Shown: piece by piece, positions 53,722 through 59,080 of the stretch | How the letters are laid out: each line of letters opens with the position of its first letter | Position numbering within the stretch: position 1 is the stretch's first letter | From: Candidatus Thalassarchaeum sp. | GTDB taxonomy: Archaea > Thermoplasmatota > Poseidoniia > Poseidoniales > Thalassarchaeaceae | Assembly (NCBI GenBank): GCA_022449345.1 | Contig: JAKURL010000004.1 | Span: 19,981 to 83,980 of the forward strand | DNA length: 64,000 bases | Reading direction: 5' to 3' | Position numbers and translations under genes: made by a program | The notes under the pieces: generated by a model | Database searches by the model: none | What the model was told of the DNA's origin: nothing | What the model saw: only the letters and a program-made list of their open reading frames with translations

Positions 53722-54219
53722 TCATTTCCTTCGCTTCAATCGTAATGTTGAGCCACAGTCGTGACAGTTTCCGTATTCGTTGGGTTCAGCATTGGTGGAT
53801 TCTGAGGCCGCAACCTCAATTCCACAGCCAGAACATATCAGAACCCATGACCAAACCTCTCTGATCCCTACTTCGCTAACCGTTTGCCAAGGAATTTCCA
53901 GTGTAGTAGCGATGTTTTGCATGCGGTAATCATCAGTAACCAATATTGCCGACCTTTCCAATGCGAGTGAGATCAATGACAGGTCGGTTTCTGAAATTCC
54001 GCTAATGTCGCCGCTATCTTTGGCGGTAATGGCCACTTTATCCATCGATTCTTGACTTGGCTGACAATTTACTAGCCCTAGACTATCCAAGATAGCGGCC
54101 CTGTCTGGTGAAATGCGTTGTAATTCTTCCTCTTGATGCTGAACTATCATCCCGCCAGATAACTCCGAGATTGGCCAAGCAATCAGGGCAGCGGTATCGA
54201 GTACACGCGCCTCAGCCAT
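53722..54219 (-). CDS. nob1: Nob1-like PIN-domain endonuclease with a C-terminal zinc ribbon
   Basis: PIN is indicated by VLDTAALI and LVTDDYRMQN. The zinc ribbon is CSGCG...CHDCGS. The start is chosen at the Met 23 codons inside the listed ORF. Confidence 0.5.
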   Translation of the reverse strand: MAEARVLDTAALIAWPISELSGGMIVQHQEEELQRISPDRAAILDSLGLVNCQPSQESMDKVAITAKDSGDISGISETDLSLISLALERSAILVTDDYRMQNIATTLEIPWQTVSEVGIREVWSWVLICSGCGIEVAASESTNAEPNEYGNCHDCGSTLRLKRRK

Positions 54220-54321
54220 AGTATGGGCTAGGCGAACCAACCTATCAGGGGTGGGGTAGAGTGGTTGCCTAGCGACATTGGGCGGCAACCTTCATCCCAA
54301 ATCGGTTGGAGGCCGCGCCTG

Positions 54322-54918
54322 ATGGACATCGTACCCCAAGACGTCGTCGACTCGGCAATTGAGTGGGCAGATGGTCTTGGATACCTTGGTCTTGCATTAC
54401 TATCGGCTACCGAAGCTGCACTCCAACCTGTCCCTCCGGACCCTTTGGTTTGGGATATGATTCTAGATTCGGATAGTGGTTTTGTGGTGGCAGCAGTGGT
54501 TCTAGTCGCAACTTTTTCCAGCGTTCTTGGAGCACTTGTCGGATATGCAATAGGAATGTACGCAGGAGGTTGGCTACTCGAGAGATTTGTTTCTGAGTCA
54601 ACTATTGCAAGGCTGAATGTACTTGTTGAAAGGTATGGTTCAGCTGGCATATTTATCGCTGCAGTATCCCCAATTCCATACAAGGCTCTAGCTTGGATCG
54701 CAGGTGCAGGTAGGATGGATTTGCGACTATTCGTTGCCGCAGGGCTTTTTGGCCGAGGTCTGCGCTTTGGGATTCCAGGTGCTCTTCTTGGATTGTATGG
54801 AGACACAATGTTGGATTCGTTGAATTGGATAACATTCAGTTTTGCGTCAATTCTAGGTCTTGTAATCGTAGTTCCTGCAGTCCGCTGGTGGAAAGGTCTG
54901 CTAGATGAGGAAGAATGA
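54322..54918 (+). CDS. DedA/YqaA-like membrane protein
   Basis: About 4 TM helices; the G-x-F-x-RF-like and PYKALAWIAGAG motifs are present. Confidence 0.45.
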   Translation: MDIVPQDVVDSAIEWADGLGYLGLALLSATEAALQPVPPDPLVWDMILDSDSGFVVAAVVLVATFSSVLGALVGYAIGMYAGGWLLERFVSESTIARLNVLVERYGSAGIFIAAVSPIPYKALAWIAGAGRMDLRLFVAAGLFGRGLRFGIPGALLGLYGDTMLDSLNWITFSFASILGLVIVVPAVRWWKGLLDEEE

Positions 54919-54986
54919 GACATTCTATTCTTGACAAACACTACACCCCACGCGTCTTATACCACACACGAAGCTCTGACTTTGTT

Positions 54987-56018
54987 ATGGGAGGGGATAC
55001 TGTGTGGTCTGCCCCCGCTTTTAGAGCCTCGATTGTAGCGGGCCTTTTCTTAGTCCTACTTTGTTCATTCTCTACTCCAGCAATTGCTGACACGGCCACC
55101 ACGACCTCAGAGGCCACATGGGTAAGGGGCGAAGATGGAATGTGGATGCTAGAATCTTCGGAAACTGGTGGTCTAATCGTAGCTAACCCAATCCCCGGAG
55201 TGACCCTTCATCCAATCGCTGATGCCAAAGTGTTGTTGACTTATACGATGAATCAGGAAGGCATTTGGTCGATTCAAAGCGAAACTATCGTCGAATACCT
55301 CAATCCAGGTAACCAAGACCCAGAAACAACTGGTTCAGACAGCGATTCCTCTAGCACGGAGAAAACTATTCTTGTTCCAACAAATCTTCTCTCTCCCCTA
55401 ATCGCGTTGATTGGTTCATTGTTCCTATTAGTAGGGTTAGTAGCCGGCGCAGACGAGCCCACAAGAGCCAGAGTCGTCGAGTCCTTGGGAAGATTCTCCG
55501 ATCTATCGGTTACTGAGGGTCCCGGAACCCTAGCAGGAAACTATCAGCGTGGAAGAATCATCGGATTCCTAACCGCGCATCCAGGGTGTCATCTTTCAGG
55601 GATGATTCGGGCGCTTGAACTCGGTAACCATCAGGCTGTACATCACCTGAGGACTTTAGAACAAGAGAACAAGGTCTGGTGTCGTCGTGATGGACGCCTA
55701 CTTCGATACTACACCAGCGAAGTAAATCGAGAGGCTGAATTGTCAGGTTTGCCTCGGCCAGTCGATGTCAAACAAATCTCCGACGTTGCATTGATGATCC
55801 TACGCACAATTGCCGAACAGACACCTGATTCACCATCCCCAACTCAAAGAGAATTAGCAAGCGAGTTGAAGACCAGCCAGCAACTGATTAGCCATCATCT
55901 CCTCAGGCTGGAAAATCAAGGTCTGATAAGTCGAGAAAGACGAGGATTGCGAACCCGCAGAATTCTCACTAGCGAAGGCGAGAAAGTTTGGGCTGGTTTA
56001 CAATCTCCTTCTCTATGA
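54987..56018 (+). CDS. Membrane-anchored protein with an extracytoplasmic N-domain and two cytoplasmic winged-helix DNA-binding domains
   Basis: It has a signal/TM segment (IVAGLFLVLLCSF), an exported region of about 120 aa, a second TM (LLSPLIALIGSLFLLVGLVAG), then two HTH/wing units (GCHLSGMIRALE...VHHLRTLE and QRELASELKTSQQLISHHLLRLENQGLI). The listed ORF starts at 54915. Confidence 0.55.
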   Translation: MGGDTVWSAPAFRASIVAGLFLVLLCSFSTPAIADTATTTSEATWVRGEDGMWMLESSETGGLIVANPIPGVTLHPIADAKVLLTYTMNQEGIWSIQSETIVEYLNPGNQDPETTGSDSDSSSTEKTILVPTNLLSPLIALIGSLFLLVGLVAGADEPTRARVVESLGRFSDLSVTEGPGTLAGNYQRGRIIGFLTAHPGCHLSGMIRALELGNHQAVHHLRTLEQENKVWCRRDGRLLRYYTSEVNREAELSGLPRPVDVKQISDVALMILRTIAEQTPDSPSPTQRELASELKTSQQLISHHLLRLENQGLISRERRGLRTRRILTSEGEKVWAGLQSPSL

Positions 56019-56098
56019 TTGGAGAATTTGAGAATTAATTCCATTCTTGACAAATCCTACAACCCACATCCCTCTAATAGCGTACGTGAGACGGTAGG

Positions 56099-59080
56099 AT
56101 GATGATTCGAACAATGAACGCCTCAAACCGCCGCCGAACTCAGGTTGGACTTTTTCTCGTAATACTTATGCTATCCTCTGGGTGTATTGGAGCAGTAGAT
56201 GATATTGCTGAGGTAGACAATGAGCCAATTCCTGTAACGGCTTCAATCGATTTAGAAGGTTCACCTACCACAACTACAGATTATGTTACAGCAGTAATTG
56301 AAGTCACGGAGGGCGAGGGGCCATTCATTGTCTCTTGGACTCTAAATGGAAATCTTGTACAATCCAGTTCTAGCCTAAGGTACGACGCTGGATTCATGAC
56401 CGTTGGAACGCATCAACTAGATGCAAGAATCATCGATTCCAACGGTGGTGAAGTCGAGGCCGCAATCATCTTCACAATCGTCGAGGCAAACAGAGCACCA
56501 CACATCGACCTCACTCTTCCAAAGAATGGTATCGCTGGCCTACCAATCGCATGGGAGGTTAATGCTGAGGATCCCGATGGTGATGAGATTACCATCACAG
56601 TAGACTTTGCTGATGGCACTTCTACAAGGAGTCAATCTGGAAACCATATTTGGGCTCATCCAGGTCAATACATAGTTGTAGCAACTGCTGAGGATAGCGA
56701 TGGATTTGTTGCTTCTGTTCAAGAGGCAATACATATCGATAGAGCTGATGCTCCGCAATTATCTGTTGAGACAAATCCAAGTGGAGAGGGGAGAATTGCT
56801 CTGTACTTGAATACAGGAATAACCTTGGAAACAGATACCCACGATGAATTGGGTCCTGTAATTGTTAGAATCGACTATGGTGATGGCTACGTGATTGAAC
56901 CAGCCGATTCGGAAGAAGAGTATCTCTACTCCGAAGAAGGAGTCTACACGATTACCGTAACAGCCTTCGGACCAACAGGAGTCACCGCTCAGCGACTTAT
57001 CCATGTAGAGGTAGTATCGGTTTCCGATGATCTTGAGGCTGCTCAAATGCAAGAGGAGTTGGAAGGTGAAGCCGAACAACAGTTGGGGGAAGAGGTTGAG
57101 CAGGAACTCGACTCCGACGGCGACGGCACCGTGGATGATGTTACCAATGCTCAATCAGACGAAGAGTATGATTGGCGTTCCGACTTTGACCCCGACGGTG
57201 ATGGCTACTACGACGATGACCAAGAAGTGGACGACTGGGTCACAACTGACGAAGAGTCGGTACGAGACGATGTTGGTGATGAAGAGGAAACCGATTCCAT
57301 GCCAAATAGCCCTTTGATGTTAGAGAGCAACGTTAGAGAAGAGGGAGAAGAGCCGTCTGAGGACGAATTAGCACCTATACCTTCGGAATATGAGGCGAGG
57401 GCCGAGATAGTCGACCCTGTCTTCGATGAAGCATGGGGTGAAGTAGAAGATGCCTCGATGGAAGAAATGACCTATTCCCGTTCTATTTCCCAAGTAACTG
57501 CTACATGGTGGAATGACAGCTTCTGGGAGGATTGGGACAACGATGGTACTCCAGAGGTCCTCTGCCACAGAACCGTAGGGGTATACTGGTTCGACTCAGA
57601 CGGCATTCCAGGGCCAGAGCGCATTATCCTAGTTCGCAATATACAATGCTCACACGACCGCGACGGCGACGGACAGGACGACGTTTTCTATACTCAATTT
57701 AGGGGGATGGATCTAGTCGACCAAAACTCAGATGGTATTCCTGAGCGACACGATGTCCTGACGCGAACCGTTTGGACTTGGGACAATGGTAGTTACGAGG
57801 ATGTTAACATACACCTATTCGTACATGCTCGGACCGATGCGGACCAAGATGGAAATCTCGAGCGAAGAATCATTCTAGATCGAGACCGAAGGATGGTAGA
57901 CCAAGGTATCGGCTTGGTATTGACCGCGTACTATTCTCACTCTCGATACATACACCGAATTGATGCTAACGACGATGGCACACCCGAGCGCTGGTTGGCC
58001 ATAGACCACACCTCATGGGTTTGGGACCCTACAGAGGATGGCAACGCAGACCGACATCGTGACAATTTACGAGCTGTTGTAAAACGAGATACGAACTCAG
58101 ACGGAAATATCGATGTATCCCGCGCACTGCAACAGACCACCGCCGAGTTCGACAATGACTCGAACGGTGTAGTTGAACTTCAATGGACTTGGAGAGCCGG
58201 GGTGCATAAGGTCGACACAGATCACGATGGAGATTTAGACTACACAGCCCGTATGCGTGGCTGGCATCAGCACTGGGATTGGGGACTGATGGAGTACCAT
58301 ATCCATAGATTCTCGCTGACTCGGATGGTCGACGATGATGCAGACGGAATTTTGGAGTGGAAACATAAAACCATACACATGTCGAACGCTACAGATTGGG
58401 ACTTTGACCAACATCTAGAGCAGCGCGAATCGTATACAGCGACCCTAGTTTGGTGGGATGCAAACGAGGATGGATATGAGGAACATGTGTTCCGGAGAGT
58501 TAAGGAGACTTCGTATTTCGACCAACATGCTAACGGTTGGAACAACCAGAACGAGGAGATTCGTTCAATGGAGGTATGGCGAAACTCGTTGAGTCAACCC
58601 CGAGTAATTCGTGTAATGGTCGCTGAGTTGACTTCTTGGGACAACAACTCTGACGGCAATCCAGACACCTACTCATATCTGGCTAGGACTTGGCAGGCTA
58701 CTGACACCGACTTTGATGGATTCCTCGACCGAAGAGTGTTCCACCGCCATTACATGACAGCGAAGGATGATAATGCAGACGGAAATGTCAACTACGCCTT
58801 GAACTCAAACATCTGGCACGCGAGAAACTTATCGCTATCGTCGACCGGAACCATAGATACTCTACAGGAGGCATACCTCTCGCACAGGGTGTTCGAGTGG
58901 AACATCAACCAGCAGGGACATGCATATCACACCAATAGCACTTGGGTAGGAGTCCATGTCGATTATGTCGCCGGAACCTCTCAGGCCATCACCGTGACGG
59001 TCATTACAATTGATTCTGACCAAGATGGTAACCCTGAGTCACAGACCATCACCAGTGGGGGAAGCAACAACCCTCCGTGA
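56099..59080 (+). CDS. Approximately 993-aa surface lipoprotein: lipobox, tandem PKD/Ig-like domains, a long acidic linker, and at least 11 DxDxDG calcium-binding-like repeats
   Basis: The lipobox-like sequence LSSGC follows a basic n-region. PKD-like units contain DPDGDEITITVDFADGT. The linker of about 140 aa is D/E-rich. The repeats DRDGDGQDD, DADQDGNLE, DANDDGTPE, DTNSDGNID, DTDHDGDLD, DDDADGILE, DANEDGYEE, DNNSDGNPD, DTDFDGFLD, DDNADGNVN and DSDQDGNPE recur every 35-45 aa. Confidence 0.7.
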   Translation: MMIRTMNASNRRRTQVGLFLVILMLSSGCIGAVDDIAEVDNEPIPVTASIDLEGSPTTTTDYVTAVIEVTEGEGPFIVSWTLNGNLVQSSSSLRYDAGFMTVGTHQLDARIIDSNGGEVEAAIIFTIVEANRAPHIDLTLPKNGIAGLPIAWEVNAEDPDGDEITITVDFADGTSTRSQSGNHIWAHPGQYIVVATAEDSDGFVASVQEAIHIDRADAPQLSVETNPSGEGRIALYLNTGITLETDTHDELGPVIVRIDYGDGYVIEPADSEEEYLYSEEGVYTITVTAFGPTGVTAQRLIHVEVVSVSDDLEAAQMQEELEGEAEQQLGEEVEQELDSDGDGTVDDVTNAQSDEEYDWRSDFDPDGDGYYDDDQEVDDWVTTDEESVRDDVGDEEETDSMPNSPLMLESNVREEGEEPSEDELAPIPSEYEARAEIVDPVFDEAWGEVEDASMEEMTYSRSISQVTATWWNDSFWEDWDNDGTPEVLCHRTVGVYWFDSDGIPGPERIILVRNIQCSHDRDGDGQDDVFYTQFRGMDLVDQNSDGIPERHDVLTRTVWTWDNGSYEDVNIHLFVHARTDADQDGNLERRIILDRDRRMVDQGIGLVLTAYYSHSRYIHRIDANDDGTPERWLAIDHTSWVWDPTEDGNADRHRDNLRAVVKRDTNSDGNIDVSRALQQTTAEFDNDSNGVVELQWTWRAGVHKVDTDHDGDLDYTARMRGWHQHWDWGLMEYHIHRFSLTRMVDDDADGILEWKHKTIHMSNATDWDFDQHLEQRESYTATLVWWDANEDGYEEHVFRRVKETSYFDQHANGWNNQNEEIRSMEVWRNSLSQPRVIRVMVAELTSWDNNSDGNPDTYSYLARTWQATDTDFDGFLDRRVFHRHYMTAKDDNADGNVNYALNSNIWHARNLSLSSTGTIDTLQEAYLSHRVFEWNINQQGHAYHTNSTWVGVHVDYVAGTSQAITVTVITIDSDQDGNPESQTITSGGSNNPP

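Follow-up and report, generated by a model that had tools for sequence, protein, structure and literature searches.

A predicted membrane-bound regulator and a predicted lipid-anchored calcium-loop protein share a conserved upstream box in Marine Group IIb archaea

The interval from 54987 to 59080 in a 64,000-nt stretch of contig JAKURL010000004.1 (assembly GCA_022449345.1), referred to here as the window and derived from an archaeon of the Thalassarchaeaceae (Poseidoniales), is filled by two open reading frames (ORFs) on the same strand. The upstream ORF, gene A, encodes a predicted transmembrane transcription regulator (TTR) with two winged helix-turn-helix (wHTH) domains, and the downstream ORF, gene B, encodes a predicted lipobox surface protein that ends in a long array of putative calcium-binding loops. 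The original prediction, made from the letters of the window alone, had placed a regulator gene directly upstream of a lipoprotein gene on the same strand, and the two ORFs bear this out. Genes A and B probably form a two-gene module that is specific to the Thalassarchaeaceae (Marine Group IIb, MGIIb). The known parts of this module are the transmembrane regulator class, the PKD domains, the lipobox and the DxDxDG loop; the new parts are a conserved operator-like box shared by the two promoters and a predicted 21-residue repeat fold that is not catalogued. The features of the locus are collected in Table 1.

Table 1. Features of the A-B locus in window coordinates, with the basis of each assignment
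Feature	Position	Strand	Basis or remark
Upstream box of gene A, core TGACAAACACTACACCCCA at 54932-50	54927..54951	+	29 distinct loci conserve it at gene A
TATA-like element TTATA of gene A	54957..54961	+	Read from sequence; 25 nt before ATG 54987
Gene A, transmembrane transcription regulator, 343 aa	54987..56018	+	ORF; >190 homologues
A: predicted N-terminal signal peptide or signal anchor	54987..55088	+	Hydropathy; ends at conserved A-x-A↓D site
A: predicted exported domain, ~100 aa, fast-evolving	55089..55385	+	Matches no family
A: predicted transmembrane helix LLSPLIALIGSLFLLVGLVAGA, then invariant DEPTR	55386..55451	+	Hydropathy; invariant columns D180-R184
A: first wHTH, HVO_0163 N-terminal type	55545..55727	+	PF24266, E=5.5e-12, 46 bits (cutoff 31)
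A: second wHTH, MarR/ArsR type	55776..55943	+	PF12802 34.4 bits (cutoff 27); PF01022 28 bits (cutoff 22)
Upstream box of gene B, core TGACAAATCCTACAACCCA at 56048-66	56043..56067	+	29 distinct loci conserve it at gene B
TATA-like element TAATA of gene B	56075..56079	+	Read from sequence; 19 nt before ATG 56099
Gene B, predicted surface protein with lipobox, 993 aa (992 aa with start at ATG 56102)	56099..59080	+	ORF; about 35 homologue clusters, length about 992 aa
B: predicted signal peptide and lipobox ML-S-S-G-C	56099..56185	+	Cys29 codon 56183-56185
B: three PKD/Ig-like beta-sandwich domains, aa 45-306	56231..57016	+	PKD_4 E=1e-15; AlphaFold2 strand pattern
B: acidic linker, aa 307-464	57017..57490	+	D+E 36%; AlphaFold2 pLDDT <50
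B: predicted C-terminal calcium-loop beta-meander, aa 465-991	57491..59071	+	AlphaFold2 model, motif statistics, invariant loop columns

The two genes are preceded by the same short element. The box, 19-25 nt in length, has the consensus TGACAAAYnCnAYnnCCCAC (ttTGACAAAy.C.Ay..CCCAc in its aligned form), and the 25-nt pattern ATTCTTGACAAAYMCTACAMCCCAC has exactly two matches in the 64 kb of the window with 3 mismatches allowed, against an expectation of 0. The 19-nt core has one further match in the window, with two mismatches. Upstream of gene A the box begins 9 nt past the stop codon of a DedA/VTT gene. Conservation was assessed across 29 distinct loci and their box pairs, drawn from a protein-guided scan of one genome per GTDB species (27 loci) together with metagenome contigs. 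The co-occurrence of the two genes in related genomes, which had been proposed as a check, was found in each sufficiently long locus, with B downstream of A, and the core box stands upstream of both genes in every locus with enough sequence except one (L021). Elsewhere in about 500 kb of these loci there is only a handful of matches at two mismatches. The region of the gene A box is non-coding in 26 of the 29 loci.

The flanks of the box vary freely among the 29 loci, whereas the box itself, the TATA-like element and the distance between box and ATG are kept at both genes. The distance from box to ATG is 54-56 nt and the TATA-like element lies 4-7 nt downstream of the box; relative to the start codons, the box occupies about -55 to -37 and the TATA-like element is found around -27. 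At gene A the equivalent of the TATA-like element is CTTATACC or CTTAACCC, at the same offset in all loci, and at gene B it is TCTAATAGC or CTTTAAGGTG, at the same offset in the other loci; the TTATA and TAATA elements are putative TATA boxes. This geometry suggests that the A and B transcripts are leaderless or carry very short leaders, and that a factor binds just upstream of the core promoter. In archaea, binding at that position is typical of activators. The box is bipartite (TGACAAA-N9-CCCAC) and not palindromic, an asymmetry that would suit a single polypeptide with two unlike wHTH domains. A scan for bacterial-type promoters and terminators gave matches at chance level. A short tandem repeat (ATTGGAGA, 2.4 copies) lies at 56018-56036, between the stop codon of gene A and the box of gene B.

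The mechanical ORF of gene A extends from 54915 to 56018 (367 aa). Of the 29 distinct orthologous loci, 26 lack an open in-frame start codon further upstream than the equivalent of ATG 54987, and this ATG, the start chosen in the original prediction, is therefore taken to be the real one. Across 54915-54986, both the mechanical ORF and some database proteins (such as P0043, 374 aa) reach at least 24 codons upstream of the ATG, and the apparent conservation of this N-terminal extension (LDK..TPRVLY) is that of conserved DNA, namely the box and the TATA-like element, and not of coding sequence.

Hydropathy of the gene A product reveals two hydrophobic segments (aa 30-62 and 151-182 in the 367-aa numbering). 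In an alignment of homologues, A58 is invariant and D59 nearly invariant, and a signal peptide is probably cleaved at this A-x-A↓D site. The domain that follows has no match in Pfam or NCBIfam. The Pfam matches to the wHTH domains are HTH_HVO_0163_N at aa 211-271 and MarR_2 at aa 288-343; the second domain also matches HTH_5/ArsR (28 bits, cutoff 22), the NCBIfam model NF033788 reaches 51.8 bits, below its cutoff of 55, and a PDB sequence search gave weak DtxR wHTH matches only. As DNA-binding domains must be cytoplasmic, the predicted order of N-terminal signal, exported domain, transmembrane helix and cytoplasmic wHTH domains is the sole consistent topology. The wHTH half of the protein is 71-85% identical between loci and the exported half only 28-44%, which fits the pattern expected of a fixed DNA target and a variable sensor. 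The first wHTH domain and its immediate surroundings contain Cys and His positions that never vary (H222-P-G-C225-H226 and W255-C256, about 55575-55685), located roughly where the metal-binding helix of ArsR would be, and these may provide a cytoplasmic metal or redox input. HVO_0163, the namesake of this domain, is reported as an ArsR-type regulator whose abundance rises under hypochlorite (PMC10294847).

Proteins that combine at least one predicted transmembrane region with a DNA-binding domain are defined as TTRs, of which archaeal genomes have about 4 on average (PMC10269533), and the product of gene A is one of them. Hydropathy and the Pfam matches agree with the one-component membrane regulator that had been proposed, with an exported N-terminal domain, a transmembrane segment and two cytoplasmic wHTH domains. 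The bacterial ToxR, CadC and TcpP proteins and ArnR/ArnR1 of Sulfolobus likewise carry a transmembrane segment and a DNA-binding domain in one polypeptide and are presumed to regulate promoters while membrane-bound; in archaea, surface structures are under the control of the membrane-bound ArnR/ArnR1 (PMC6396743; PMC10269533). The arrangement in A is the reverse of that in ToxR and CadC, with the sensor N-terminal and outside and the DNA-binding part C-terminal; in addition, A has two tandem, non-identical wHTH domains (HVO_0163 and MarR/ArsR) in place of one OmpR-type or ArnR-type HTH, and an exported domain that matches no family. Assignment of A to the ToxR/CadC type was rejected on the grounds of this order and of the lack of a Trans_reg_C match.

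Gene B encodes a protein whose sole hydrophobic segment is N-terminal and is followed by LSSGC. This lipobox had been noted in the original prediction, and the assignment has held: M24, L25, S27, G28 and C29 are invariant in 21 homologues, and the Cys is also kept in remote homologues. The context (...VGLFLVILM-L-S-S-G-C29) satisfies a permissive PROSITE-style rule, and among window ORFs of at least 100 aa only B has a lipobox-type N-terminus. Cys29 is a probable site of lipidation. Haloferax lipobox lipoproteins similarly have a signal peptide that ends in [S/A]-G-C, the Cys being invariant; lipobox proteins are reported to be prevalent in the Euryarchaeota, and AliA/AliB, enzymes that take part in their lipidation, are known only from Haloferax (PMC12462473). 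Export of B by the Tat pathway was rejected, as the orthologues do not all keep the twin arginine (some have RHR), and export is therefore probably by Sec. Several public gene calls (P0013; P0025-P0030, 969 aa; P0032, 974 aa) start at the Met before the lipobox (MLGSGC...) or inside the h-region; such entries lose the signal peptide and therefore would be mispredicted as cytoplasmic.

The anchor is followed by tandem PKD-like domains, again as first proposed. In Pfam, PKD_4 matches at 58 bits (cutoff 27) and PKD at 45 bits (cutoff 23.5), and AlphaFold2 (AF2) models aa 45-306 as three beta-sandwiches with a predicted local distance difference test (pLDDT) score of 70-89. The polyacidic linker described earlier is also present, with D and E making up 36% of residues 305-470. 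The linker contains a predicted helix (aa 311-337) and two near-invariant DxDGDG motifs at aa 338 and 364 (LDxDGDGTVD and YDWxSDFDPDGDGYYDDD; window 57110-57230, aa 338-377), and may itself bind Ca2+. At 993 aa the protein is large, not "giant" as it had been called.

The C-terminal array of B spans ~530 aa and consists of about 25 units, each an 11-residue strand of alternating pattern plus a 9-10-residue loop with the consensus D-x-[DN]-x-D-G-x-x-[DE]. Between aa 478 and 972 there are 14 strict D-x-[DN]-x-[DN]-G-x-x-[DEN] loops; shuffled versions of B contain 0.03 on average and 2 at most (5000 shuffles). The loops are 21, 39-42, 61 or 82 aa apart, and the autocorrelation is highest at 21 and 42, so the base period is 21 aa. 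The earlier count of at least 11 DxDxDG loops thus stands (14 strict loops, ~25 loop positions), while the period of 35-45 aa that was given with it does not. Some of the ~25 loop positions are degenerate in the B protein of the window and canonical in remote homologues. No DNA-level tandem repeats were found in gene B, and the strand segments of different units are only 6% identical, which indicates that the array is ancient.

A profile of the repeat domain, searched against 1.84 billion cluster representatives, retrieved 56 proteins. Some of these share the full architecture of B at 26-32% identity (an L[AS]GC lipobox, PKD domains, an acidic linker and the C-terminal domain), including one cluster named Poseidoniaceae (Marine Group IIa, MGIIa). 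Others, several of them named Thermoplasmatota, have an N-terminal anchor followed by long arrays with the exact 21-aa loop spacing, and all relatives with the 21-aa repeat carry an N-terminal signal or anchor. Across B homologues of 26-44% identity, the loop D, N and G residues are almost the sole invariant columns; the conserved loop columns are the putative ligand positions 1, 3, 5 and 9 together with Gly6. Ca2+ binding by the loops is therefore probable, since their motif is identical with that of known Ca2+ hairpin loops and the ligand positions do not vary.

The repeat matches no Pfam or NCBIfam family in scans of B and of its remote homologues, apart from a weak NCBIfam LanM match in B. 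In the Pfam scan of B there was no match at E<=0.1 to FG-GAP, FG-GAP_3, HemolysinCabind, TSP_3, TSP3_bac or Dockerin_1, and no EF-hand match; RTX, thrombospondin (TSP) type-3 and dockerin models were likewise not listed for the remote homologues (Pfam, E<=0.1). Identification of the repeats as FG-GAP blades, TSP3 repeats or dockerins, which had been the initial suggestion, is not upheld by these results, nor by the 21-aa period or the meander model described below. RTX beta-roll and other Ca2+-dependent repeat adhesins resemble B in being exported, very acidic repeat proteins with regularly spaced Asp/Gly loops, and by analogy B would be expected to bind Ca2+ and to fold only outside the cell. 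B differs from them in lacking GGxGxDxUx nonapeptides and a HemolysinCabind match, its unit being a 21-aa strand plus loop, and in its N-terminal lipobox anchor, where the RTX and repeat adhesins use type I secretion and outer-membrane retention.

Two AF2 runs addressed the fold of the repeat domain. With full-length B and 21 close sequences, the PKD domains were confident and the repeat region had a pLDDT of 25-67. With the C-terminal 539 residues alone and remote homologues added to the alignment, the mean pLDDT was 91.1 and the predicted template-modelling score (pTM) 0.76; none of the five models had a pLDDT below 88. The second model has 26 antiparallel strands of 11-18 residues each, joined by loops, and the array is accordingly predicted to be one continuous 26-strand antiparallel beta-meander. 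The AlphaFold check suggested for a Ca-binding beta-propeller thus gave a different answer, and the region is modelled as ordered rather than disordered. Foldseek found no global match in the PDB: overall, TM-scores were 0.14-0.36 with a root-mean-square deviation (rmsd) of 15-36 A, the best being the ApoB100 beta-belt at 0.36, and large outer-membrane barrels scored 0.14-0.22 with an rmsd >23 A. In the viral library, tail-fibre and MORN-type sheets were matched at a TM-score of at most 0.41. Together with the ApoB100 beta-belt, MORN arrays and phage tail-fibre sheets are the nearest structural class by Foldseek, as extended antiparallel hairpin arrays; B has no sequence relation to them, and none of these arrays is known to have a Ca2+ loop in each turn. 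The strands lack a hydrophobic face and have a high content of R, T, H and W (11% R, 7% H, 10% T).

Database homologues of A and B bear the names Poseidoniales or Thalassarchaeaceae, and NCBI taxonomy assigns the latter family to Thermoplasmatota; Poseidoniia; Poseidoniales. In the GTDB species scan, relatives of gene A were found only in the Thalassarchaeaceae, apart from a contig (L022, CAZSAT010000237.1) labelled 'uncultured Enterobacterales bacterium'. Since this contig carries an archaeal A-B pair with both boxes and a B C-terminal domain that is 88% identical, it is evidently a mis-binned MGIIb contig. B-like proteins occur more widely. The remote B-like genes and the transmembrane-anchored repeat proteins have housekeeping neighbours, with no A-like gene and no convincing box. 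It follows that B does not need A in general, and that the A-plus-box layer is an MGIIb-specific addition to an older surface protein. Of the initial proposal that the pair is a sensor/regulator with its target, the pairing is supported by the box common to both promoters in 27 species genomes, whereas a general dependence of B on A is not. One remote B-like gene (P0164, on the 4.4-kb contig L039, which has no A-like gene) is preceded at positions 594-640 by TTGACGATGCGACAATCC and then TATAAC before the ATG; its resemblance to the MGIIb box is weak and could reflect chance or an ancestral promoter feature. A literature search on the A-B pair in the Poseidoniales found nothing.

Within the MGIIb, different parts of the locus have different affinities. 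From PolD through the PKD domains of B, the window is closest to the clade of L008, L013, L014 and L017 (PolD 87%, B-PKD 75-77%). The linker and C-terminal domain of B, together with YAcAr, the second gene after B, have their nearest relatives in the distant genus Thalassarchaeum (83-88% for the B C-terminal domain and 83-87% for YAcAr, against only 73-76% for PolD). The L008 clade has a second type of B C-terminal domain, about 42% identical to the first (41-44% between the window and this clade), and among loci L001-L038 the two types do not follow species relationships, which suggests allele exchange. The pattern suggests that B is a recombination mosaic, with a probable breakpoint near aa 305 (about 57010, the 5' edge of the linker).

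Taken together, these observations lead to a reading that we hold with modest confidence, a little above even: that B is a lipid-anchored protein of the cell surface, stabilised by Ca2+, with the distal sheet as its working surface, that its promoter is controlled jointly with that of A, and that A is the likely box-binding activator, answering a signal from outside the cell. In this model a cleavable signal peptide would export the small, fast-evolving sensor domain of A while both wHTH domains stay in the cytoplasm. B would be tethered by its lipid-modified N-terminal Cys, with the PKD/Ig domains and the ~160-aa linker holding out the distal 530-aa domain, whose 26 predicted strands would be joined at both edges by integrin-type D-x-D-x-D-G-x-x-D/E hairpin loops. 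Seawater contains about 10 mM Ca, where each loop would most likely bind one Ca2+, and this Ca2+ would drive and stabilise the folding of B outside the cell. A and B would each be transcribed from a promoter of its own, with the same bipartite box just upstream of the TATA-like element. The most likely mechanism is that A, still in the membrane, binds the asymmetric box with its two unlike wHTH domains; upon an extracellular or envelope signal, it would activate its own gene and B. Binding of the box by A, and activation rather than repression, are probable steps of this model, as is a role of B as a binding, adhesive or envelope-building module.

The Poseidoniales are among the most abundant archaea of the surface ocean, and their surface and gene regulation are known from sequence only, because none has been cultured. 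The locus yields a regulator, a probable operator and a probable target. B is a candidate protein for attaching cells to particles or for building the envelope, and its mosaic alleles make an interaction with viruses or grazers possible. The 21-residue calcium-loop repeat, with a predicted fold that is confident yet unmatched, would deserve a family definition. No principle is overturned by the locus. A broader proposal is speculative and rather doubtful: that the C-terminal domain of B founds an uncatalogued fold class, one antiparallel beta-sheet of 21-residue units in which every turn is stapled by Ca2+, that it is the main exposed surface (an adhesive coat or envelope lattice) of the Poseidoniales and other Thermoplasmatota, and that in the MGIIb its expression is set by an envelope-sensing regulator through a bipartite operator. 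On this reading the group would have its first predicted circuit of regulator, operator and target.

Several points weigh against the model of an A-controlled surface protein. The link between A and the box is drawn from sequence, and another factor could bind the box. Locus L021 has no box within 2 mismatches upstream of B. B-like genes occur in other Poseidoniales, including the Poseidoniaceae, in unrelated contexts. A TATA peak at -27 is not general among the genes of the window, many of which have Shine-Dalgarno-like sequences, so the case for leaderless transcripts depends on the spacing that is constant upstream of these two genes. The lipobox of B departs from the canonical L at position -3, which is S or G in the MGIIb rather than the L/V/I of archaeal lipobox lipoproteins, and L[AS]GC, the canonical form, is found in the remote homologues. 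The low pLDDT of the repeat domain in the full-length model with its shallow alignment must be set against the confident second model, and AF2 can be overconfident on repeats. Finally, the whole neighbourhood is syntenic, and the adjacency of A and B is weak evidence of a functional link.

The alternative that survives best, with a genuine chance of being right that falls well short of even, concerns the role of B. As a structural envelope protein of an S-layer-like or canopy type, B would present its Ca2+-edged sheets side by side above the lipid-anchored stalk. Ca2+-dependent lattice assembly is known for other S-layers, and strands that are polar on both faces are suited to protein-protein stacking. 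Every MGIIb genome found has one B orthologue, placed among housekeeping genes; these proteins hardly vary in length (989-993 aa) at identities of 42-100%, and B-like proteins occur in both families of the Poseidoniales. A structural role is favoured by the single copy, the nearly constant length and the spread across the order. A dedicated regulator, however, would be unusual for a constitutive envelope protein, and no homology to known S-layer proteins was found in Pfam, NCBIfam or PDB sequence searches. The exchange of two diverged C-terminal types fits an exposed ligand or receptor surface equally well, and both the mosaic alleles and a regulator dedicated to B speak for a surface exposed for interaction.

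It is rather unlikely that A and B are neighbours through synteny only, in which case another regulator would bind the box, or the box would be left over from a duplicated promoter, and A would have other target genes. An archaeal DNA polymerase II small subunit gene is among the neighbours (NF003118, E=2e-128), and all loci of the family share synteny over 15-20 kb, between the PolD small subunit and SufS, so adjacency alone proves little; the B-like genes found elsewhere without A, and the fact that binding of the box by A is deduced indirectly, are also in keeping with this view. Against it stand the confinement of the box to two promoters in 64 kb, with few 2-mismatch matches in about 440 kb of related loci, and its preservation while the flanks diverge. 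Furthermore, the sufficiently long loci in which relatives of A occur, all from the Thalassarchaeaceae, also carry B and the box (the L021 B box excepted), and an autoregulated regulator beside its own target is a common pattern.

A mainly metal-sequestering or buffering function, as in lanmodulin, is improbable. The best PDB sequence matches of B are to lanmodulin and EF-hand loops (E about 3e-5), which, like the LanM match, would be in line with such a function, and like those proteins B has D-x-D-x-D-G-x-x-D loops (spaced about 21-25 aa in lanmodulin and EF-hand proteins), about 20 or more of them acidic, plus an acidic linker. The likeness is limited to the loops, however: there is no helix-loop-helix, the flanks are predicted beta-strands, and position 12 is not a conserved Glu or other acidic residue. 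On these grounds, and for want of a Pfam match, assignment of the repeat to the EF-hand was rejected. Moreover, Ca2+ is not limiting in seawater, and the PKD stalk and lipid anchor point to surface display.

A divergent FG-GAP/VCBS-type Ca2+-binding beta-propeller is very unlikely. The consensus equals that of the integrin hairpin loop, and in integrin-alpha and FG-GAP (VCBS) proteins, as in B, neighbouring antiparallel strands are connected by a loop of nine residues, D-x-[DN]-x-D-G-x-x-[DE]; some profile matches also have borderline FG-GAP_3 hits (P0225 at 29 bits, cutoff 26.9; P0222 and P0220 below cutoff). P0222 and P0225, however, have a period of 31/32 (63) aa and belong to a different family, FG-GAP blades are four-stranded and about 60 aa in length, whereas B has a loop after every strand in a single predicted meander, and no propellers were among the top 50 Foldseek PDB matches; the propeller was thus rejected, on strand pattern and Foldseek matches rather than on inspection of the coordinates. 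The least probable of the alternatives, a membrane beta-barrel (pore) or a lipid-binding amphipathic beta-belt, draws on top Foldseek matches to 22-30-strand outer-membrane barrels and the ApoB100 beta-belt (LptD has 26 strands), and it was rejected because the strands have no hydrophobic face and the TM-scores are low, while the domain also sits on a lipoprotein stalk in an archaeon without a known outer membrane.

The gene order DedA-A-B is fixed in all MGIIb loci. The DedA/VTT ORF as listed (54265-54918, +, TTG start, 217 aa) overlaps the 5' end of a divergent PIN-domain gene (53722-54288, -). Its orthologues are 198-203 aa in length, or 245 aa in L001, and the true start is on that account probably later than the listed TTG.

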